Position numbers and translations under genes: made by a program. Source: a virus (taxonomy: Duplodnaviria > Heunggongvirae > Uroviricota > Caudoviricetes). Taken from it: a stretch of DNA of 6,054 nucleotides. The notes below the pieces were generated by a model that saw only the letters and a list, made by a program, of their open reading frames with translations, had not been told where the DNA came from and ran no database searches. This document shows, piece after piece, positions 1 through 6,054 of this stretch; within the stretch, counting starts at the first letter, position 1; each line of letters starts with the position of its first letter. The stretch spans positions 1 through 6,054 of IMG/VR virus record IMGVR_UViG_2724679236_000018, one strand, 5' to 3'.

Positions 1-1284
1 TTACTTCTTCGCCTCTGCAACCACTTTGCTACCCACGCCGCGGTTGTTGTACTCCCACATGCGGTTGTAGTTAGTGTCATTCAGATTGCGCTGTACATCG
101 TCGCTATCATCAGCGTTTCCGGTATTACCCGCGAACGGACGATTAGAGATCACCGCATCAGCCCACGGTTTAGCTGTGTTAAAGCCTTCGTTAATGGCGC
201 TATCACGAATCACCACCTGGCCGTTGGTATTGGCATCAACATCCAGCGAGCGACCCAACTGCGCGACGCCATCACCAGAAGCATTAAATCGGCTATTTAC
301 TGCCAGGAAACCGTAATAGATATTAGACAGCGTAGCTGGTGCAAACACATACGCTTCCTGCTGGGTACGGGAGTTCACCACGCGGAATTCAGTATTATCG
401 AACACCACTGCGCCGCGACCAGAAACGATATCCACATCCCCTTCGATGTAGCTGTTAGTCACCAGCGTACGCGGTTGGCGGTTGGTTTCCAGACGGTTTT
501 GCACGCCACTGTTAGTCACAAAGAAAGTATTCTGACGACCCAGAATATTGACGTTATTGATCTGTACTTTATCGCCATCAGTACGCAGAGCTACCGCTGG
601 ATGGTTGCCTGCATCTACGCTATCGCCCAGCGTGTTTTCGATGGTCAGATTTTGCAGTTGCAGGCCATTGTTTTGCGACCAGAAGACCGCAGAACACAGA
701 ACGCCGATACTGTTGCTGCGTTTGCTCTGGCAGCTATCGTACATATACCACGCTGGTTTACCTGGCATATATTTGCCGCGCGGGTTGACGTCATGACGCC
801 AGTCGGCAGGGCTCATGCCGCCATCAAGGGAGAGTCCAATCTTCACATCAATCGGTTTTTCGCCTGTACCATAGACGGTGATTCCACCCGGAGCTGCAGG
901 GACATACACCGTTCCCTGATACTCACCAGGCATCACGGCAATATACTGGCGCTTATTGGTACGCTTGATAATTGCCGCATCTACCGCCGCCTGAATCGTG
1001 GTATGCGTTACGCCTGGAGTACCCGCCGGGCCGACAACAAAGTCAGGTTGTGCAGGCAGGGTAATCGGCGAAGGATTCCACGCCGCAGCACCAGGCGTCA
1101 GGGATGAAAAATAGTGTTGAGCATCGAAATTCTGCGCTTCTTTTGCCGACAGAATCGGGCGAGAAGAAGTACCAGGCGCGGTTTGATCAGAAGGACGTTG
1201 ATCGGGCGGTGTTGAGCTACAGGCGGTCAGCGTCACGCCAAAAGCCAGTGCCAGCGCCAGACGGGAAACTGAAAATGTGTTCAC
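1..1284 (-). CDS. ybhC: YbhC-like outer-membrane lipoprotein (pectinesterase-like / putative acyl-CoA thioesterase family); host gene flanking the prophage
   Basis: Complete 427-aa ORF on the minus strand with stop at 1-3. N-terminus MNTFSVSRLALALAFGVTLTAC is a lipoprotein signal peptide with lipobox LTAC. Body contains pectinesterase-like motifs (HPAVALRTDGDKV, GDVDIVSG). Lying directly beside the lambda attB core matches my recollection of E. coli ybhC. Confidence 0.85.
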   Translation of the reverse strand: MNTFSVSRLALALAFGVTLTACSSTPPDQRPSDQTAPGTSSRPILSAKEAQNFDAQHYFSSLTPGAAAWNPSPITLPAQPDFVVGPAGTPGVTHTTIQAAVDAAIIKRTNKRQYIAVMPGEYQGTVYVPAAPGGITVYGTGEKPIDVKIGLSLDGGMSPADWRHDVNPRGKYMPGKPAWYMYDSCQSKRSNSIGVLCSAVFWSQNNGLQLQNLTIENTLGDSVDAGNHPAVALRTDGDKVQINNVNILGRQNTFFVTNSGVQNRLETNRQPRTLVTNSYIEGDVDIVSGRGAVVFDNTEFRVVNSRTQQEAYVFAPATLSNIYYGFLAVNSRFNASGDGVAQLGRSLDVDANTNGQVVIRDSAINEGFNTAKPWADAVISNRPFAGNTGNADDSDDVQRNLNDTNYNRMWEYNNRGVGSKVVAEAKK

Positions 1285-1315
1285 AGGTTGCTCCGGGCTA
1301 TGAAATGTAAAAATG

Positions 1316-1421
1316 AATCCGTTGAAGCCTGCTTTTTTATACTAAGTTGGCCTTATAAAAAAGCATTACTTATCAATTTGTTGCAACGAACAGGTCACTA
1401 TCAGTCAAAATAAAATCATTA
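1316..1421. other. Prophage attachment site attL (B-O-P'): host B arm, 15-bp lambda common core GCTTTTTTATACTAA at 1331-1345, phage P' arm
   Basis: Exact lambda core GCTTTTTTATACTAA at 1331-1345. Left flank TGAAGCCTG matches the attB B arm and right flank GTTGG...TATAAAAAAGCATT matches the attP P' arm as I recall them. An IHF-like site TATCAATTTGTTG (1371-1383, WATCAANNNNTTR) and three tandem arm-type Int sites (AGGTCACTAT, CAGTCAAAAT, AAATCATTAT, 1392-1421) follow, running into the int stop codon. Confidence 0.9.
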
Positions 1422-2486
1422 TTTGATTTCAATTTTGTCCCACTCCCTGCCTCTGTCATCACGATACTGTGATGCCATGGTGTCCGACTTATGCCCGAGA
1501 AGATGTTGAGCAAACTTATCGCTTATCTGCTTCTCATAGAGTCTTGCAGACAAACTGCGCAACTCGTGAAAGGTAGGCGGAGTCCCTTCGAAGGAAAGAC
1601 CTGATGCTTTTCGTGCGCGCATAAAATACCTTGATACTGTGCCGGATGAAAGCGGTTCACGACGAGTAGATGCAATTATGGTTTCTCCGCCAAGAATCTC
1701 TTTGCATTTATCAAGTGTTTCTTTCATTGATATCCCGAGAGCATCAACATGCAATGTTGTAGGAATGGCAATTTTTACGCCTGTTTTGCTTTGCTCGACA
1801 TAAAGATAGCCATCTACGATATCAGACCACTTCATTTCGCATAAATCACCAACTCGCTGCCCGGTAACAACAGCCAGTTCCATTGCAAGTCTGAGCCAAC
1901 ATGGTGATGATTCTGCTGCTTGATAAATTTTCAGGTATTCGTCAGCCGTAAGTCTTGATCTCCTTACCTCTGATTTTGCTGCGCGAGTGGCGGTGACCGG
2001 GTTTGTCGTTATATGGCCTTCAGCTATAGCCTCTCGGAATGCATCGCTCAGTGTCGATCTGATTAACTTGGCTGATGCCGCCTTACCCTCGTCTATGTAT
2101 CCATTGAGCATTGTCGCAATTTCTTTTGTGGTGATGTCTTCAAGTGGAACATCAGGTAACTCCTTCCTTATTGCTTTAATTTTGCTCATGTAATTTATTA
2201 ATGTCTTCTGCTTGATCCCTCTGCTGGAGAGGATTTTTTCGTAGCGATCAAGCCAAGCATGGAGAGTGATTGAATCAGCGCCTTTAATCCTGCCCAGCAA
2301 TGATTCGTGCCCGCTTTCGGTGAAAAGCTCAATGTTGGTGTGAATTGCTTCGGAAATTGCTACCCTCCTGTCTCTTCCCAGCCCGAACTCTTTTTTCGTC
2401 CTCGGGTCTCTGTAGCAGTAATACCCGTTTCTTTCGTAGAGATTTGGCGGCAGGTCGCGCCGCTTATGGCTTCTCCTTCTTCCCAT
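1419..2486 (-). CDS. int: Lambda-type integrase (tyrosine site-specific recombinase Int)
   Basis: 355-aa ORF beginning MGRRRSHKRRDLPPNLYERNGYYCYRDPRTKKEFGLGRD and ending ...GREWDKIEIK, which matches lambda Int as I recall it. It sits next to attL and overlaps xis by 23 bp as in lambda. Confidence 0.96.
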   Translation of the reverse strand: MGRRRSHKRRDLPPNLYERNGYYCYRDPRTKKEFGLGRDRRVAISEAIHTNIELFTESGHESLLGRIKGADSITLHAWLDRYEKILSSRGIKQKTLINYMSKIKAIRKELPDVPLEDITTKEIATMLNGYIDEGKAASAKLIRSTLSDAFREAIAEGHITTNPVTATRAAKSEVRRSRLTADEYLKIYQAAESSPCWLRLAMELAVVTGQRVGDLCEMKWSDIVDGYLYVEQSKTGVKIAIPTTLHVDALGISMKETLDKCKEILGGETIIASTRREPLSSGTVSRYFMRARKASGLSFEGTPPTFHELRSLSARLYEKQISDKFAQHLLGHKSDTMASQYRDDRGREWDKIEIK

Positions 2487-2682
2487 TTCTGATCCTCTTC
2501 AAAAGACTACCTGTTACTGGTCGATTTAAGTCAACCTTTACCGCTGATTCGTGGAACAGATACTCTCTTCCATCCTTAACCGGAGGAGGGAATATCCTGC
2601 ACTCGCGTACCCATCGACGAACTGTTTCAAGGCTTCTTGGGCGTCGCTGGCGTGCGTTCCACTCCTGAAGTGTCAAGTACAT
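2464..2682 (-). CDS. xis: Lambda-type excisionase Xis
   Basis: 72-aa ORF MYLTLQEWNARQRRPRSLETVRRWVRECRIFPPPVKDGREYLFHESAVKVDLNRP..., which matches lambda Xis as I recall it. Its 3' end overlaps the int start in the classic arrangement. Confidence 0.95.
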   Translation of the reverse strand: MYLTLQEWNARQRRPRSLETVRRWVRECRIFPPPVKDGREYLFHESAVKVDLNRPVTGSLLKRIRNGKKEKP

Positions 2683-2738
2683 CGCAAAGTCTCCGCAATT
2701 ACTCGCAAGGGAACGAGTAGTGGTTGATTTTCTCCAAC

Positions 2739-2761
2739 AAAAAAGGAGCCGAAGCTCCTTT
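2739..2761 (-). terminator. Candidate rho-independent terminator downstream of the AntA-like gene and upstream of xis
   Basis: On the minus strand: GGAGC-TTCG-GCTCC (5-bp GC-rich stem, 4-nt loop) followed directly by TTTTTTGTTGG. The plus-strand version has only TTT after the stem. It lies 6 bp beyond the stop codon (2767-2769) of the AntA-like gene. Confidence 0.6.
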
Positions 2762-2766
2762 GATGA

Positions 2767-3390
2767 TTAAAATTCGAATTGTCTCGCCCGAAGGCTTTTC
2801 AACATTGGTCTTGCCCGTTCGAAAACGGCGCTTGTCTGGTCAAGTCGTGTCGCCTCCCTGAGCAGTACATCTCTGTTTTTTGTCACCGTGTAAAAAGTTT
2901 CAAACGCGATGTCATACAGCTTGCTCGCGTATGATGAGTTAAGTTCCTTCATTATCGGGTACAGGCGTTTGCAGGTATCCACTGCTTTTTCCATCTGTAC
3001 CAGCATGTAGCAGAGGAGGATGATTTCCTCGTCTGTGAATTGTTGTAGTGGCTGCATATTGCGATACTTCTTCTCGCATTCGATGAAGTATCGACGTATC
3101 TGGCGGCCTTTTTCGTTGCGCTCAACCATCGCCAGTTCTTTGGCTGTGTCGAGGGTGAGGTGGTAATCCTTGCGGTTGTGACCGCCTCTACCAGAGGTTT
3201 GCTTTCCCAAATTGGAAAGCAAAATATAGTCTTGATTTTCAATGAATTCGTATTCTGAAATGCGATTTGTAATCCATGCCGCAAACACCTTTTTCACGCC
3301 TAAAAAAGCATGCAGATCACGGGCATTACAGAGCAGGGTGGTTTCGTTGGCAATAGTGCCGTTGAATACGGGGATGAGTTGACTGGTCAT
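2767..3390 (-). CDS. Phage antirepressor-like protein with N-terminal AntA-type domain and uncharacterised C-terminal half
   Basis: ORF 2767..3402; I place the start at the second in-frame ATG (3388-3390, MTSQLIPVF...) because GGAGG sits 5 nt upstream of it, while the first ATG (3400-3402) has no SD. The N-terminal ~110 aa carry the motif set I associate with the AntA/AntB antirepressor domain (ARDLHAFLGV, WITNRISEYEFIENQDY, GGHNRKDYHLTLDTAKELAMVERNEKGRQIRRYFIECEKK). The C-terminal ~100 aa have no motif I recognise. Confidence 0.8.
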   Translation of the reverse strand: MTSQLIPVFNGTIANETTLLCNARDLHAFLGVKKVFAAWITNRISEYEFIENQDYILLSNLGKQTSGRGGHNRKDYHLTLDTAKELAMVERNEKGRQIRRYFIECEKKYRNMQPLQQFTDEEIILLCYMLVQMEKAVDTCKRLYPIMKELNSSYASKLYDIAFETFYTVTKNRDVLLREATRLDQTSAVFERARPMLKSLRARQFEF

Positions 3391-3418
3391 GATGACCTCC
3401 ATAGATTTTTAGTTAGCA

Positions 3419-3441
3419 ATCACCAGTTAGTGGCTGGTGAT
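3419..3441. promoter_or_regulatory. Perfect 8-bp inverted repeat ATCACCAG-N7-CTGGTGAT in the leader of the AntA-like gene; candidate operator or leader RNA hairpin
   Basis: Arms 3419-3426 and 3434-3441 are exact reverse complements. The element lies between a TTGACA hexamer (minus strand, plus-strand coordinates 3446-3451) and the RBS of the AntA-like gene (3393-3397). Confidence 0.35.
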
Positions 3442-3609
3442 CGGGTGTCAACTAGAGCATCTATGAAGCTCCGGGCATATTCCCCTTGCAGGTGTTGTAT
3501 TACGCCTCTCCACCCGACCTTTGTACGGATGTGACTATGCCAGATTGCAGGCATAAAAAAGCCGCAAAGCTATCGGGTGCGGAGACCGCATAGATTTTCT
3601 AGTGCGGTC

Positions 3610-3639
3610 AGTATGCGATAGCTCGAGCGGATTTGTCAA
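3610..3639 (-). promoter_or_regulatory. Candidate sigma70-type promoter (TTGACA-18 bp-CATACT) reading towards the AntA-like gene
   Basis: Minus-strand TTGACA (plus coordinates 3634-3639), 18-bp spacer, CATACT (3610-3615). This is hexamer matching only, with a weak -10 element. Confidence 0.2.
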
Positions 3640-3742
3640 ATCATGTGGTCTTTATCTTGCTGTAAGCCGCGCCATTCGGGCTTTTCCCCAGATTTGGGGG
3701 AAACTATCTGCGAAGTATTCACCTTTAACGGCTAGTTGCAGG

Positions 3743-4027
3743 TTAGCCACGACCTTCCTCCTTTGGCTTGTGAATTTGTATCGTCATGCCGCTTTGAGTG
3801 GTGACTACAATGACAGAACCAGGCTGAAGGCTGTTAAGATTGAATGCTTCGTAAAACGAATCCAATGCCAGTGCTTTTTTATTCTTTCGGTTCCACCAAC
3901 GCCATCCCTTGCTACAGGCTACACTGACAATCCACTGCCCACTCCTGTAAGCCATATAAAACCAGATGAGCAAAACCTGAAGGAAGGCTATCCAGTCAAT
4001 AATCGTATATTTAGCGAAGGAGTCCAT
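3743..4027 (-). CDS. Small predicted membrane protein (94 aa), translationally coupled to the upstream DUF551-like gene
   Basis: Start ATG at 4025-4027 overlaps the TAA stop of the upstream gene (TAATG on the minus strand) and is preceded by GGAGG 7 nt upstream. The longer 119-aa ORF in the track is an upstream extension with no RBS. The protein MDSFAKYTIIDWIAFLQVLLIWFYMAYRSGQW... has one clear hydrophobic helix (about residues 7-27) followed by a basic cluster NRKNKK, suggesting a cytoplasmic C-terminal domain. Confidence 0.65.
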   Translation of the reverse strand: MDSFAKYTIIDWIAFLQVLLIWFYMAYRSGQWIVSVACSKGWRWWNRKNKKALALDSFYEAFNLNSLQPGSVIVVTTQSGMTIQIHKPKEEGRG

Positions 4028-4449
4028 TACTTCACCTCCAGCGGTGGTTCCGGTAGCGGCATCCAGTGTGATGGTATCCACGACGCACCAGGAATTATCC
4101 ACCCATCATTAGCGTCAGGATGCCCAGGGATGTAAGTCGCCCATTTCATTCGCCAGTCACCTCTCCTGTCAAACTCCCTGGCAACAAGAACGGCTGTTTT
4201 GCTATCCGGCATTCGCTCACTACAGCTTATCCAACCATCCGGAATTACCGGAGAGTTGCCAGCCAGCGCGTTCAACTTGTAAGTTTGGCTTACAGGTTCT
4301 GCACTATCAGCTTCTCGCCGCTTCTGTAGCTCTGCTGCCATCGCTCTCACGACTTCAACTGGTGCCCTTGCAGCAAACTCCATGTTGGTGATCAGCTCAT
4401 TAAGATATTGCTCGCTGGGATACTGTTTCTTATTGGTAATGGTGGTCAT
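4027..4449 (-). CDS. Phage protein with C-terminal DUF551-like domain (140 aa)
   Basis: ORF with AAGGA 8 nt upstream of the ATG at 4447-4449. The C-terminal half (DGWISCSERMPDSKTAVLV...WATYIPG...ASWIPSHWMPLPEPP) resembles the conserved motif of DUF551-family prophage proteins as I remember it. The N-terminal ~70 aa are unassigned. Confidence 0.75.
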   Translation of the reverse strand: MTTITNKKQYPSEQYLNELITNMEFAARAPVEVVRAMAAELQKRREADSAEPVSQTYKLNALAGNSPVIPDGWISCSERMPDSKTAVLVAREFDRRGDWRMKWATYIPGHPDANDGWIIPGASWIPSHWMPLPEPPLEVK

Positions 4450-4453
4450 ATCA

Positions 4454-4639
4454 CTATCCTTTAGTGCGCAAGTGGTTTTTCCAGCGGTTTTGCGCCGCGC
4501 TGGGCTTGTTAAGTGAACACATCACAATATCAGCCGTATTTTTGAACAGCCCCATTCTGCGGTTACTGAGTTTTAACCATTGCTGGACGCCGCGAGCATT
4601 TCTACAGGTCAAAAGAATTTTTGCTTTACGGTTTTTCAT
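4454..4639 (-). CDS. Small basic hypothetical protein (61 aa, ORF A), start inside a duplicated boundary cassette
   Basis: ATG at 4637-4639 overlaps the TGA stop of ORF B (ATGA). Its stop at 4454-4456 is 4 nt from the start of the DUF551-like gene. The protein begins MKNRKAKILL..., sharing its first 7 residues with ORF B because of the direct repeat. No family recognised and the SD is weak, so coding status is uncertain. Confidence 0.4.
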   Translation of the reverse strand: MKNRKAKILLTCRNARGVQQWLKLSNRRMGLFKNTADIVMCSLNKPSAAQNRWKNHLRTKG

Positions 4640-4641
4640 CG
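4611..4641. repeat. Direct repeat copy 1 (23-bp exact core TTTTGCTTTACGGTTTTTCATCG at 4619-4641 plus AAAAGAA flank)
   Basis: Identical 23-mer recurs at 4792-4814, 173 bp away, each time with an AAAAGAA flank. On the minus strand it reads CGATGAAAAACCGTAAAGCAAAA and carries a start codon and the first codons of a small ORF. Confidence 0.85.
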
Positions 4642-4812
4642 CACTGCGTACCCCTTCTCTCGTCTGTTACGCGACGCGGTGGTTTTATAGTTAAATGCGA
4701 ATACCACCCTACCAAACATGCCGATCACCGCCCGTTTGTGATTGCTGATTGGTAGCTTCTCGTACCCCGTCGAACGCGATAAAAGAAGTAATTTTGCTTT
4801 ACGGTTTTTCAT
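4636..4812 (-). CDS. Small basic hypothetical protein (58 aa, ORF B), start inside a duplicated boundary cassette
   Basis: Internal ATG at 4810-4812 of the 72-aa track ORF, preceded by AGGAG about 9 nt upstream. It overlaps the last 14 nt of the Ea22-like gene and its TGA stop overlaps the ATG of ORF A. Begins [10 protein letters not shown]...; no family recognised. Confidence 0.4.
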   Translation of the reverse strand: MKNRKAKLLLLSRSTGYEKLPISNHKRAVIGMFGRVVFAFNYKTTASRNRREKGYAVR

Positions 4813-4814
4813 CG
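4781..4814. repeat. Direct repeat copy 2 (23-bp exact core at 4792-4814 plus AAAAGAA flank)
   Basis: Same 23-mer as 4619-4641. Here it spans the TAA stop of the Ea22-like gene (4799-4801) and the ATG of ORF B (4810-4812). Confidence 0.85.
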
Positions 4815-5449
4815 TTTTGCTCTCCTGCGTCTCCTTTGATGCGAATGCCAGCAAGCCAGTTTCTTATGCCGATATATTCAGCGTTCCTGAAACCGCTTTT
4901 TACATATATAAATGGCAAGCGAAGATTGTGACCATTGGCTGCCAGGTAGTTTTTACAACCCTGTTCGGTGAAACTGCAGGTAACGAATTCATCAATATCT
5001 TTCACAGCAACGCGCCGCCATTTTTCTGGTGGCTCTCGAAAGTTTTCGTGAAGTAGTTCGAGACGACGACTTTGGCGTTTATTGGCTTCATTGCCATCTT
5101 CATCAACCCAGACAATCCTGTCATAGTCATAATCAGAATCAACAACGATTTCGCGCTTTTGATACACACAAAACATAGGTTCTGACGTTATTCGATTATC
5201 CTGTGTTCGAATATTTTCACCGATGATGCCAAATGAATCTGGTGCAGATTTTGTCTGCAACTCTGCTATGCGCTTACTCCCATCCGAGATAACACCTTCG
5301 TAATATTCACGCTGCTCGTTGAGTTTTGATTCAAGTTCACCGAACTTACGGACAAGATATTCAGCGTTTGTTTCGTTAACCTTTAAATCTCGGGGGATGT
5401 ATTTACCTTTCAGAAATCCATCCATCTCAATTAGTGTCATTTGTTTCAT
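4799..5449 (-). CDS. ea22: Ea22-like early-left protein (mosaic; conserved central segment, divergent N- and C-termini)
   Basis: The central peptide [25 protein letters not shown] and the C-terminal AGIRIKG match lambda Ea22 segments as I recall them ([34 protein letters not shown]). The track ORF starts at a GTG (5465-5467) with no SD; I prefer the ATG at 5447-5449 ([12 protein letters not shown]...), which has a purine-rich GGAGTGGGAAGAA upstream. The start is uncertain between these two. Confidence 0.75.
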
Positions 5450-5606
5450 TTCTTCCCACTCCGCCACATCGCATTCAGATATTTGTTTTGATTTACTGAA
5501 GGAAAAGAATTTCTCTTAAGCAATTCCTCTCTCGATGGCATTGGCTTTACGCGTTGGCGAATAATCATTTCTGCCGGAAGAATGCCGGGATTGTATGCAA
5601 GTCCTC

Positions 5607-5897
5607 TCATGATTTACTCTCCACGAACTGGTCAATAGCCATGCTAAGTGACACACCTAAAGTATCGATATGCTGCTGAATATCCTGTAGCGTCTGAGCC
5701 TGAGATAACAGGATTTCACGGTTGCATAACTCTTTAACCAGATGCTCAAACTTGCTGTAATAACCGATACGGCTTAGTGTTTCTTTCCCTGCATTCTCGC
5801 CTTCTTTGATAATTCCTCTTTCGCTAAGAATCAGGTCGTGTTTGGTTCCGGTAATAACGTATTTTCCGAGGTCGATGTTTAGCTTCATTGTTTTCAT
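5607..5897 (-). CDS. Hypothetical phage protein (96 aa)
   Basis: Within the 146-aa track ORF the ATG at 5895-5897 ([13 protein letters not shown]...) is the only candidate start with a good SD (GAGGA 7 nt upstream). The 5' extension of the track ORF starts at a TTG without an RBS and overlaps another open frame. No family recognised. Confidence 0.55.
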
Positions 5898-5907
5898 TGT
5901 TAATTCC

Positions 5908-6054
5908 TCAGTCATTACTGATAGCGCCATAGCGTGAGCGGTAATTACGCAGGCGCGGGTCAATTTCAGGGAAGTGGGTATATGTGGCTTTGCGGAATGG
6001 TCGGATTGATGTCTGGTAAATTCGCTCGCGTTCTTCTTTCTCTGCAAGCCATAT
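5908..6054 (-). CDS. 3' end of a hypothetical gene whose start lies beyond the window (partial)
   Basis: A minus-strand frame is open from the window edge to a TGA at 5908-5910, giving ...IWLAEKEERERIYQTSIRPFRKATYTHFPEIDPRLRNYRSRYGAISND. The TGA abuts the SD of the next gene (TGAGGAATTAACAATG), a typical coupled arrangement. Not in the ORF track because it is truncated; no family recognised. Confidence 0.4.
   Translation of the reverse strand: MWLAEKEERERIYQTSIRPFRKATYTHFPEIDPRLRNYRSRYGAISND

Follow-up and report, generated by a model that had tools for sequence, protein, structure and literature searches.

A candidate c4-like antisense module of the sRNA-Xcc1 family in front of a prophage antirepressor-type gene

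The described system closest to the locus reported here is immI of bacteriophages P1 and P7, in which the c4 RNA, which is processed and acts in trans, controls icd-ant; RNase P reportedly carries out the processing, a result said to go back to Hartmann et al. in 1995. In the phage P1 record, the promoters P2c4 and P1c4 are followed by the putative upstream targets a1 and b1, the 77-nt c4 RNA, the targets a2 and b2, and then icd, ant1/ant2 and kilA, with b2 annotated as ending 11 nt before icd. The c4 fold comprises a closing stem, a UUCG hairpin, a hairpin that displays an antisense loop, a single-stranded junction and an ACC tail. The loop, CACUAAC, is antisense to b2 (GUUAGUG, then AGG), and the junction, CUGUCAA, is antisense to a2. 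Here, we describe an ant-like gene and the region in front of it in a 6,054-nucleotide stretch of a Caudoviricetes virus record (IMG/VR IMGVR_UViG_2724679236_000018, positions 1 to 6,054; the whole stretch is referred to as the window). The gene is already known, and the interesting part is the control system that precedes it. Probably, an RNA of the sRNA-Xcc1 family, a leader, and ant make up an antirepressor module of the immI type that is complete in itself and sits next to int-xis at the end of a prophage. In this module, pairing of an RNA loop with the Shine-Dalgarno (SD) sequence of ant would silence the gene in the manner of c4.

The RNA family has been described in other settings. In Xanthomonas, sRNA-Xcc1 was detected as a discrete 88-nt species by Northern blotting and rapid amplification of cDNA ends (PMC2996969). 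In integron cassettes of Xanthomonas, its position upstream of symE was noted as "suggesting a divergent regulatory mechanism" (10.1101/2025.06.18.660453), and one copy was noted upstream of an ORF6N gene in APSE phages (APSE phage paper); both sources record the adjacency and give no mechanism. Automated annotations repeatedly report the family in E. coli, Xylella, Haemophilus, Aeromonas, and APSE phages, where it is usually discussed as a virulence small RNA (sRNA). A 2025 review of phage sRNAs ties c4, sar, IsrK, and 24B_1 to antirepressor or related phage genes and does not list sRNA-Xcc1 (PMC12197685); the c4-a1b1 motif is listed in Weinberg et al. 2010. In the openly searchable literature, we found neither the general link to the KilA-N superfamily nor the analogy with c4 that are set out below, and likewise no account of the leader copy or of covariation with the SD; priority is uncertain.

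The RNA in the window matches the RF02221 model over its full length (model positions 1-87 of 87; 62.3 bits against a gathering score of 53, E=7e-10), and its 3′ end lies 40 nt before the ATG of ant on the same strand. Its parts are listed in Table 1. Compensatory changes in the closing stem P1 were seen by eye, without a formal pair count, in 112 aligned homologues. The loop of the variable hairpin HP2, CUUCAUAGAU, reads by eye as the reverse complement of AUCUAUGGAG, the SD region of ant. With duplexfold, HP2 of the window formed 10 contiguous base pairs, including G-U, with its own translation-initiation region (TIR) at -16.7 kcal/mol, an energy matched by only 2 of the 185 foreign TIRs. 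The HP2 loop also pairs with the SD in the minimum free energy (MFE) fold of the RNA, leader, and ribosome-binding site (RBS) taken together (146 nt; -47.5 kcal/mol, z=-3.1). The ACCA tail and the terminal bases of stem P1 form part of the 5′ arm of hairpin P4, an arrangement also seen by eye in some other loci. Within HP1, a near-invariant asymmetric internal loop (AAUACAAnACC / GGGGAAUA) surrounds a 3-bp stem with a GNRA-like loop. It lies outside the antisense pairings and could serve as a ligand pocket or be bound by a protein or by RNase P.

Table 1. Coordinates of the RNA, its putative targets, the leader, ant, and the attachment-site end of the prophage in the window
Feature	Positions	Strand	Basis
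sRNA-Xcc1-family RNA, 89 nt	3431..3519	-	Rfam RF02221
RNA closing stem P1	3519-3511/3447-3439	-	
RNA hairpin HP1 (conserved)	3507-3473	-	
RNA hairpin HP2 (variable), antisense loop 3468-3459	3472-3454	-	
RNA junction, 6 nt	3453-3448	-	
RNA ACCA tail	3438-3435	-	
b2-like target AUCUAUGGAG, overlapping the SD, complementary to the HP2 loop	3397..3406	-	duplexfold, family-wide covariation
a2-like candidate target CUAACUGG for the RNA junction CUAGUUG	3423..3430	-	duplexfold -6.3 kcal/mol, family-wide covariation
Hairpin P4 GAUCACCAG/CUGGUGAUU, directly 3′ of the RNA	3418..3442	-	MFE fold
Leader element	3551..3602	-	covariance model R1, 53 bits, E=8e-11
Leader b1 (upstream target copy) AUCUAUG	3595-3589	-	HP2 loop vs b1 -12.2 kcal/mol
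Leader hairpin A UGCGG/CCGCA	3590-3578 (arms 3590-3586 / 3582-3578)	-	
Leader terminator-like hairpin T, CCGC/GCGG	3582-3579 / 3565-3562	-	hairpin T covariation
Leader U6	3560-3555	-	
Sigma-70-type promoter candidate TTGACA-18-CATACT	3610..3639	-	promoter scan, 10/12 match; positional peak
ant-like coding sequence, 207 aa (AntA residues 22-92 + P22_AR_C residues 116-178)	2767..3390	-	open reading frame list, Pfam, PHROG, identical database cluster
SD GGAGG, 5 nt before the ATG at 3390	3396..3400	-	direct sequence reading
ant intrinsic terminator: 8-bp stem AAAGGAGC/GCTCCTTT, UUCG loop, T-run, just past the stop	2742..2761	-	terminator scan; RNAfold -12.5 kcal/mol
xis	2464-2682	-	Exc
int	1419-2486	-	Phage_integrase + lambda Arm-binding domain
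lambda attachment core GCTTTTTTATACTAA	1331-1345		
host ybhC	1-1284	-	Pectinesterase match, weak

To compare the locus with its relatives, viral contigs were scanned for the conserved core of the RNA, ATACAANACCNNNAAGGGGAA, regardless of the neighboring gene, and a second set was obtained by an independent scan of one genome per bacterial species. In total, about 200 loci from viral contigs and bacterial genomes were compared (individual loci carry numbers beginning with L). In the genome set (596 Gb), the 17-base pattern was expected to yield ∼70 chance matches, and a filter requiring a stem P1 of at least 7 bp kept 100 of the 111 instances. Sixteen of 17 sampled pattern-derived loci exceed the Rfam gathering score. 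The hosts are Alpha-, Beta-, Gamma-, and Deltaproteobacteria and, more sparsely, Acidobacteria and Gemmatimonadota; the single Bacteroidota locus sampled (L149) falls below the gathering score.

The RNA keeps a constant position and orientation relative to a downstream gene. A co-oriented open reading frame (ORF) of at least 60 aa starts 62-183 nt after the core in 103/113 viral-contig instances, and a co-oriented downstream ORF is present in 95 of the 100 structure-filtered genome instances. When starts were called with the SD taken into account, they fell 94-183 nt after the core, mostly 101-128, with an SD of at least 4 nt in 93/104. In a further class of loci, the start lies at a distance of 178-190 nt, and some subgroups may be arranged differently. 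The Pfam domains of the downstream ORFs in the viral set are KilA-N (14), Bro-N (12), AntA (11), P22_AR_N (10), ORF6N (10), Phage_pRha (8), and P22_AR_C, the last in 19 of 103 related downstream genes and accompanied in the set by varied N-terminal domains. In the genome set, they are Bro-N (21), Rha (12), SymE_toxin (6), P22_AR_N (5), ORF6N (3), AntA (2), KilA-N (2), and a few helix-turn-helix domains. The largest class of downstream ORFs without a Pfam match was assigned to phrog_17048, "anti-repressor." All six N-terminal families reportedly belong to one KilA-N/Bro-N DNA-binding-domain superfamily, as Iyer, Koonin and Aravind are said to have described in 2002. The RNA is thus conserved while its protein partner crosses Pfam family boundaries, which argues that the coupling is functional and not simple co-inheritance.

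Between loci, the variable loop of the RNA changes in concert with the 6-8 nt that immediately precede the SD. The HP2 loop and RBS region are CTTCATAGAT and ATCTATGGAG in the window, TCTTTGAAG and CTTCAAAGGA in L004 (whose Ant is 93% identical and whose type of RNA carries the loop UCUUUGAAG), CTTCTTATTTG and CAAATAAGGAG in L070, CTTCACATTAG and CTAATGTGGAG in L098, CTTCACTGA and TCAGTGAGG in L036, and CTCCATGGG and CCCATGGAG in L068. Duplex energies were computed for HP2 alone against the TIR (-22 to +6) in 92 nonredundant viral instances. HP2 paired with its cognate TIR at a mean of -13.65 kcal/mol, compared with -9.37 kcal/mol for non-cognate TIRs (Mann-Whitney p=6e-25) and -10.12 kcal/mol for a control segment of equal size inside the same ORF (Wilcoxon p=4e-9). 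In a set that includes relatives, the cognate TIR was among the best 10% of its column for 58% of the instances, and the paired target was nearly always located at -22 to -3. The result was replicated in the genome set (-14.75 cognate versus -11.20 kcal/mol non-cognate, p=3e-13). Among 158 well-paired instances, 133 distinct 7-mer target cores were found. The junction between HP2 and stem P1 likewise has a covarying partner in the spacer (cognate -4.24 versus -2.27 kcal/mol, p=7e-22; examples of junction and partner are TACGAA/TTCGTAA, TCTTAA/TTAAGAA, and TCTGAA/TTCAGAA), which in the largest class lies 0-3 nt 5′ of the HP2 target.

Tandem modules of leader, RNA, and small ORF, ∼380 bp apart, were observed at L076:7500-9400, L226:5400-7700, and Xylella Temecula1 1,313,466-1,315,082. 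Each tandem module has its own loop/target address, and the two-module contigs L076 and L226 each carry two different ones; those of L076, where five leader matches were found, are UCUACUUC/GAAGUAGGAG and UCUGAGUU/AACUCAGGAG.

The target sequence recurs upstream of the RNA. An exact 7-mer copy of the locus's own HP2 target was found upstream in 38/90 loci, against 1.1 expected from non-cognate upstream regions, mostly 66-113 nt before stem P1; in the window, the copy is ATCTATG, the b1 of Table 1. No a1-type leader copy was identified in the window. The copy opens a leader with the consensus [copy]-GCGG-N3-5-CCGC-(A/G)CCCG(A/U)(C/U)AG-N3-5-GCGG-U6-7, from which a covariance model, R1, was built using 28 loci, with the window and phage P1 left out. 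R1 placed a leader upstream of 72/101 RNAs, on the same strand and 11-66 nt before stem P1, with one exception at 164 nt. The 5′ segment of the leader pairs with the cognate HP2 at -16.2 kcal/mol and with non-cognate HP2 at -9.8 kcal/mol (p=1e-22, median rank 2 of 59). Covariation supports the CCGC/GCGG hairpin that precedes the U-run (90% paired, 9 double-sided changes, and 0 of 500 shuffles as good). Phage P1 has the same leader layout downstream of its b1, CGGACAACCGC...CCGATA-TTGCGG-TATTTTT, and the top R1 match in 20 kb of phage P1, searched on both strands, sits exactly on b1 (8263-8316, 20.6 bits, E=0.004); the leader element is common to the window and P1 c4. Taken together, the comparative evidence establishes, at the level of the family, the predicted pairings of the loop with the SD and with b1 and of the junction with the a-type site, as well as the predicted terminator-like hairpin of the leader and the fixed architecture of the module.

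Promoter-like sites cluster with the -10 element ending ∼90 or ∼120 nt before stem P1. The window candidate falls in the ∼90-nt class, a peak made up of 11 loci, and its predicted transcription start lies near 3603, just before b1. TTGAC and nATACT/TATGCT are retained in relatives whose spacers have diverged (L004, L032, L040, L041, L070, and L098). LexA-type control was considered and set aside, as no CTG-N10-CAG box was seen by eye around the promoter, where no formal search was made. The loop of the terminator-like hairpin (3566-3578, minus strand) contains a conserved box, (A/G)CCCG(A/U)(C/U)AG, that is also present in homologous leaders. In the window, the box equals the first seven bases of the 3′ strand of stem P1 (CACCCGA), which is not so in other loci. 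A terminator-like site at 3577-3591 in the plus-strand scan is the palindrome of leader hairpin A read on the opposite strand and is probably not a separate feature.

In the proposed mechanism, the conserved promoter would start a transcript that carries first the leader, with its b1 copy of the ant ribosome-binding region, its terminator-like hairpin, and its U-run; next the structured RNA; then a short spacer with the a2-like target and with b2, the SD region; and last ant with its own terminator. The 9-10-nt HP2 loop would pair with the SD region and block ribosome binding, and the junction would pair with a second nearby site, following the logic of c4 on icd-ant. Such pairing would be expected to repress ant translation, the sole plausible outcome of SD occlusion, for which c4 is the precedent. 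As loop, b1, and b2 co-vary from phage to phage, each module would have a private address, and Ant, an antirepressor-type regulator that may be hazardous, would be the cargo whose translation stays off in the lysogen. The RNA would be released from the transcript, probably by RNase P, and would be able to act in trans. The RNase P-like determinants of the sRNA-Xcc1 copies (G+1 in 96%, U-1 in ∼60%, and an NCC tail in 64-71%; the window RNA has G at +1 and ACCA after stem P1) fit RNase P processing without proving it. Hairpin A of the window has 2 nt in common with b1, and its CCGC also belongs to the terminator hairpin; RNA binding at b1 could therefore favor termination. Binding there may thus modulate termination in the leader, as a negative feedback like that of pT181/pIP501 attenuation; alternatively, a short terminated leader could serve as a decoy.

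The same sequences could instead form a cis-acting leader switch, in which the sRNA-Xcc1 fold and a fold that pairs the 5′ arm and loop of HP2 with the SD exclude one another within a single mRNA, in the manner of a riboswitch or a protein-responsive leader, the HP1 loop is the sensor, b1 is an anti-antisense element in cis, and a free RNA is unneeded. The SD-sequestered MFE fold of the 146-nt segment points this way, as do the near-invariant HP1 loop, to which no role is assigned, the presence of b1 upstream on the same predicted transcript, and the position of the RNA, always ∼30-60 nt from the start codon on the same strand. We nevertheless consider such a switch unlikely. A hairpin loop presents the antisense bases, as is usual where two RNA molecules recognize each other by antisense pairing, and the layout is that of c4, a separate misc_RNA in the phage P1 record. 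A terminator-like hairpin stands between b1 and the RNA, the difference in address between tandem modules of one contig is in keeping with a need for orthogonality in trans, and a discrete RNA has been mapped in Xanthomonas (PMC2996969).

By sequence, ant belongs to a known prophage antirepressor family, of which it is an ordinary and very common member. Its 207 aa equal the length of the database homologues, which include one 100%-identical cluster named antA/AntB antirepressor family protein; an alternative ATG upstream at 3402 would give 211 aa but is without an SD. The AntA domain (PF08346) scores 93 bits against a gathering score of 27 (E=1.7e-26), in line with an earlier reading of the sequence alone (hereafter, the sequence-only reading), which had recognized an AntA-type N-terminal half. 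That reading had taken the C-terminal ∼100 aa to be novel. They are in fact the known domain P22_AR_C (PF10548), which scores 42.5 bits in the full protein (gathering score 22.4, E=7e-11) and 44.7 bits when residues 106-207 are searched alone (E=1.5e-11). P22 Ant consists of P22_AR_N and P22_AR_C, the latter scoring 106.6 bits there, and the window Ant aligns to residues 229-272 of P22 Ant with 36% identity (BLASTP E=7e-8). The PHROG family phrog_377, "anti-repressor Ant," spans residues 1-207 (E=8e-92). A database search returned 4855 homologues, of which the best 120 are 93-100% identical and all have both domains; names among the matches listed are antA/AntB antirepressor family protein or phage antirepressor Ant. 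The ant region matches 976/5426 complete E. coli genomes (∼18%) and is also found in many Shiga toxin (Stx)-converting phages, annotated as AntB or anti-repressor Ant; the exact protein is on record from Escherichia albertii. An NCBIfam search gave no matches for Ant or its neighbors, and a PDB sequence search with Ant found nothing below E=0.2. An AlphaFold2 model from the single sequence was unusable (mean predicted local distance difference test score, 40.6), and the listed homologues, at least 93% identical, cannot deepen the alignment. In a literature search, we found no experimental study of this Ant family in lambdoid or Stx phages. By analogy, the domain shared with P22 Ant suggests that the protein may bind and inactivate a repressor.

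A different role for Ant would be that of a mainly host-toxic protein, as are KilA, Icd, and SymE, with the RNA as its antitoxin in a toxin/antitoxin-like or abortive-infection module whose job is not antirepression. The RNA cassette precedes SymE-type toxin genes in 6/94 genome loci (including L124, L130, L164, and L195), and symE with sRNA-Xcc1 is the most widespread integron cassette of Xanthomonas (10.1101/2025.06.18.660453). The RNA also precedes KilA-N and Bro-N proteins; KilA "can kill host" according to the phage P1 record, and growth inhibition by Phi11 Gp07, a Bro-like/KilA-domain protein, has been reported (PMC5944126). Set against this, the window Ant has its C-terminal domain in common with a genuine antirepressor, that of P22, and its relatives reside mainly in prophages, at early-left or immunity-type positions. 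We judge a primarily toxic function to be improbable, noting that toxicity and antirepression are not mutually exclusive and that the window sequence is silent on toxicity.

The sequence-only reading took ant for a stand-alone, independently regulated antirepressor-like gene whose unassigned C-terminal half could carry target specificity; as a full account, it would leave regulation to the promoter, RBS, and terminator of the gene only. Its account of the gene stands: the RBS, the terminator, and the AntA domain are present, and, with a promoter whose hexamers are kept in diverged relatives, they make ant a separate expression unit adjoining int-xis. It is nonetheless very unlikely as a whole. 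The novelty of the C-terminal half is already contradicted, and the 340-bp non-coding gap described upstream lacks a credible protein gene (∼340-350 nt between the ATG and the DUF4752 stop at 3743) but is not featureless. Besides the promoter-like site, it holds a member of a curated RNA family and a conserved leader, each showing complementarity to the RBS that covaries between loci. This structured antisense RNA and its leader, the main regulatory feature, were missed, and the gene feature was drawn to end at 3451, inside the RNA, cutting through it. Least likely of all is that sRNA-Xcc1 is an independent trans-acting sRNA with host targets that lies beside ant by incidental hitch-hiking in mobile DNA, for although the original papers describe an sRNA that acts in trans, is controlled by HrpG/HrpX, and has many predicted targets (PMC2996969) and Rfam types the family as "Gene; sRNA," the RNA is fixed in position and orientation relative to the downstream start codon across phyla, its partners fall into six different Pfam families, so that the linkage is not one inherited cassette, and its variable loop follows the SD region of its neighbor.

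Several observations weigh against the c4-like module that we favor. Both instance sets were chosen on the exact 17-base core and so represent part of the Rfam family only. In three Xanthomonas copies (L124, L130, and L164), there is no loop-specific complementarity to the TIR of the called ORF. The a2-like pairing in the window is weak and ambiguous, with 7 G-U-rich base pairs at -6.3 kcal/mol and two candidate sites, the second being a similar copy, UAACUA, at 3415-3410. The 5′ hairpin A (GCGG/CCGC) is conserved and 77% paired, with covariation no better than in shuffles; it is thereby ruled out as a covariation-supported antiterminator, and attenuation is conjectural. The Rfam c4 model (RF01695) had no match in 3380-3760, even at E<=10 with permissive filters. 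Pairwise homology to phage P1 was not significant for the leader (score 20 against a null of 15±2.2, reached by 3-7% of nulls) or for the window RNA and c4 (score equal to the null mean), and the window Ant is not detectably homologous to phage P1 Ant1 (BLASTP E=1.9). The antirepressor activity ascribed to proteins with AntA and P22_AR_C derives from domain sharing with P22 Ant and not from an assay, and we infer repression, release of the RNA, and a role for RNase P in E. coli.

The surroundings of the module are those of a lambdoid prophage. Directly downstream of ant, on the same strand, are xis and int. The lambda attachment core lies between host ybhC and the lambda-type int, and therefore, judging from this arrangement, the window is the right end of a prophage integrated at att-lambda. 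Beyond ant, the same strand carries early-left-type genes, namely DUF4752, DUF551, two phrog_1380 ORFs, an Ea22-like ORF, and a DUF5405 ORF. The phrog_1380 ORFs (4454-4639, 61 aa, and 4636-4854, 72 aa; minus strand) are overlapping neighbors and mutual paralogues, with PHROG function unknown. The longest DUF4752 ORF (3743-4102, minus strand) overlaps the DUF551 ORF (4027-4449, minus strand) by 76 nt; its true start is probably internal, because the profile matches begin at residues 26-33 and the PA28 homologue has 94 aa. No Arc/Mnt-type repressors were seen in the window, and the immunity region of the prophage lies outside it.

For the family as a whole, we propose tentatively, as a possibility that may well prove wrong, that sRNA-Xcc1 is no Xanthomonas virulence sRNA but a second, very widespread c4-type class of "immunity RNA" with programmable loop/b1/b2 addresses, that these addresses set cross-induction groups in polylysogens, and that b1 and the terminator act as an antisense-sensing attenuator or a decoy setting the ratio of RNA to ant. 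If so, each address would privately silence the adjacent antirepressor-like or toxin gene, and in polylysogens, such as E. coli with Stx phages, the addresses would be heteroimmunity-like groups that decide which prophages cross-induce one another. Should Ant influence induction, the RNA address would govern when and in which prophage this happens, which bears on Shiga toxin release and prophage cross-talk. The proposal offers a concrete, testable mechanism for the Rfam family and would extend the P1 c4 model to many prophages in Proteobacteria and beyond, including Stx-converting phages. The covarying loop/b1/b2 triplets would be a natural form of orthogonal RNA addressing, and the link to SymE suggests a general RNA "safety catch" for hazardous genes of mobile elements.

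Three described systems besides c4 invite comparison. The window RNA is a full-length member of RF02221 above the gathering score; the family, however, has been described as a trans-acting, virulence-regulated sRNA, and the cis-linked anti-SD role and the resemblance to c4 emerge from the present analysis. The immI region of P22 resembles the window in that its cargo shares the P22_AR_C domain and that translation of ant is controlled by an RNA pairing to the ant ribosome-binding region (P22 record; PMC12197685). However, sar is a cis-antisense transcript from the opposite strand that overlaps the arc-ant junction, whereas the window RNA lies upstream on the same strand and presents a short, loop-displayed antisense segment. 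As in SymR-SymE, an RNA would block translation of a harmful protein, and some bacterial SymE-family genes are themselves preceded by sRNA-Xcc1; SymR, in contrast, is a cis-encoded antisense RNA overlapping symE, and the window cargo is not SymE.

The likeness to immI of phage P1 is the most extensive. In both, a promoter, a target copy, a terminator-like hairpin with a U-run, the RNA, its targets (the last on the RBS), and an antirepressor-type gene follow one another on one strand. The two RNAs share a plan of closing stem, structural hairpin, antisense-loop hairpin, antisense junction (a candidate one in the window), and ACC(A) tail, and loop and target sequences vary among related elements. 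They differ in that c4 and sRNA-Xcc1 are separate Rfam families that no clan joins and whose sequences are not significantly similar, and in the large conserved internal loop of HP1, which is absent from c4. The window RNA would target the ant RBS directly, with no icd-like coupling ORF in the window; a b1-type upstream copy alone is evident, whereas phage P1 has a1 and b1; and the cargo combines AntA with P22_AR_C, whereas phage P1 Ant1 has the KilAC domain only. Since the pairwise alignments are not significant, we claim a shared architecture and a shared leader motif and not homology of the RNAs. We therefore class the window as probably working like immI and as sharing its leader element, and not as a member of the c4 RNA family.

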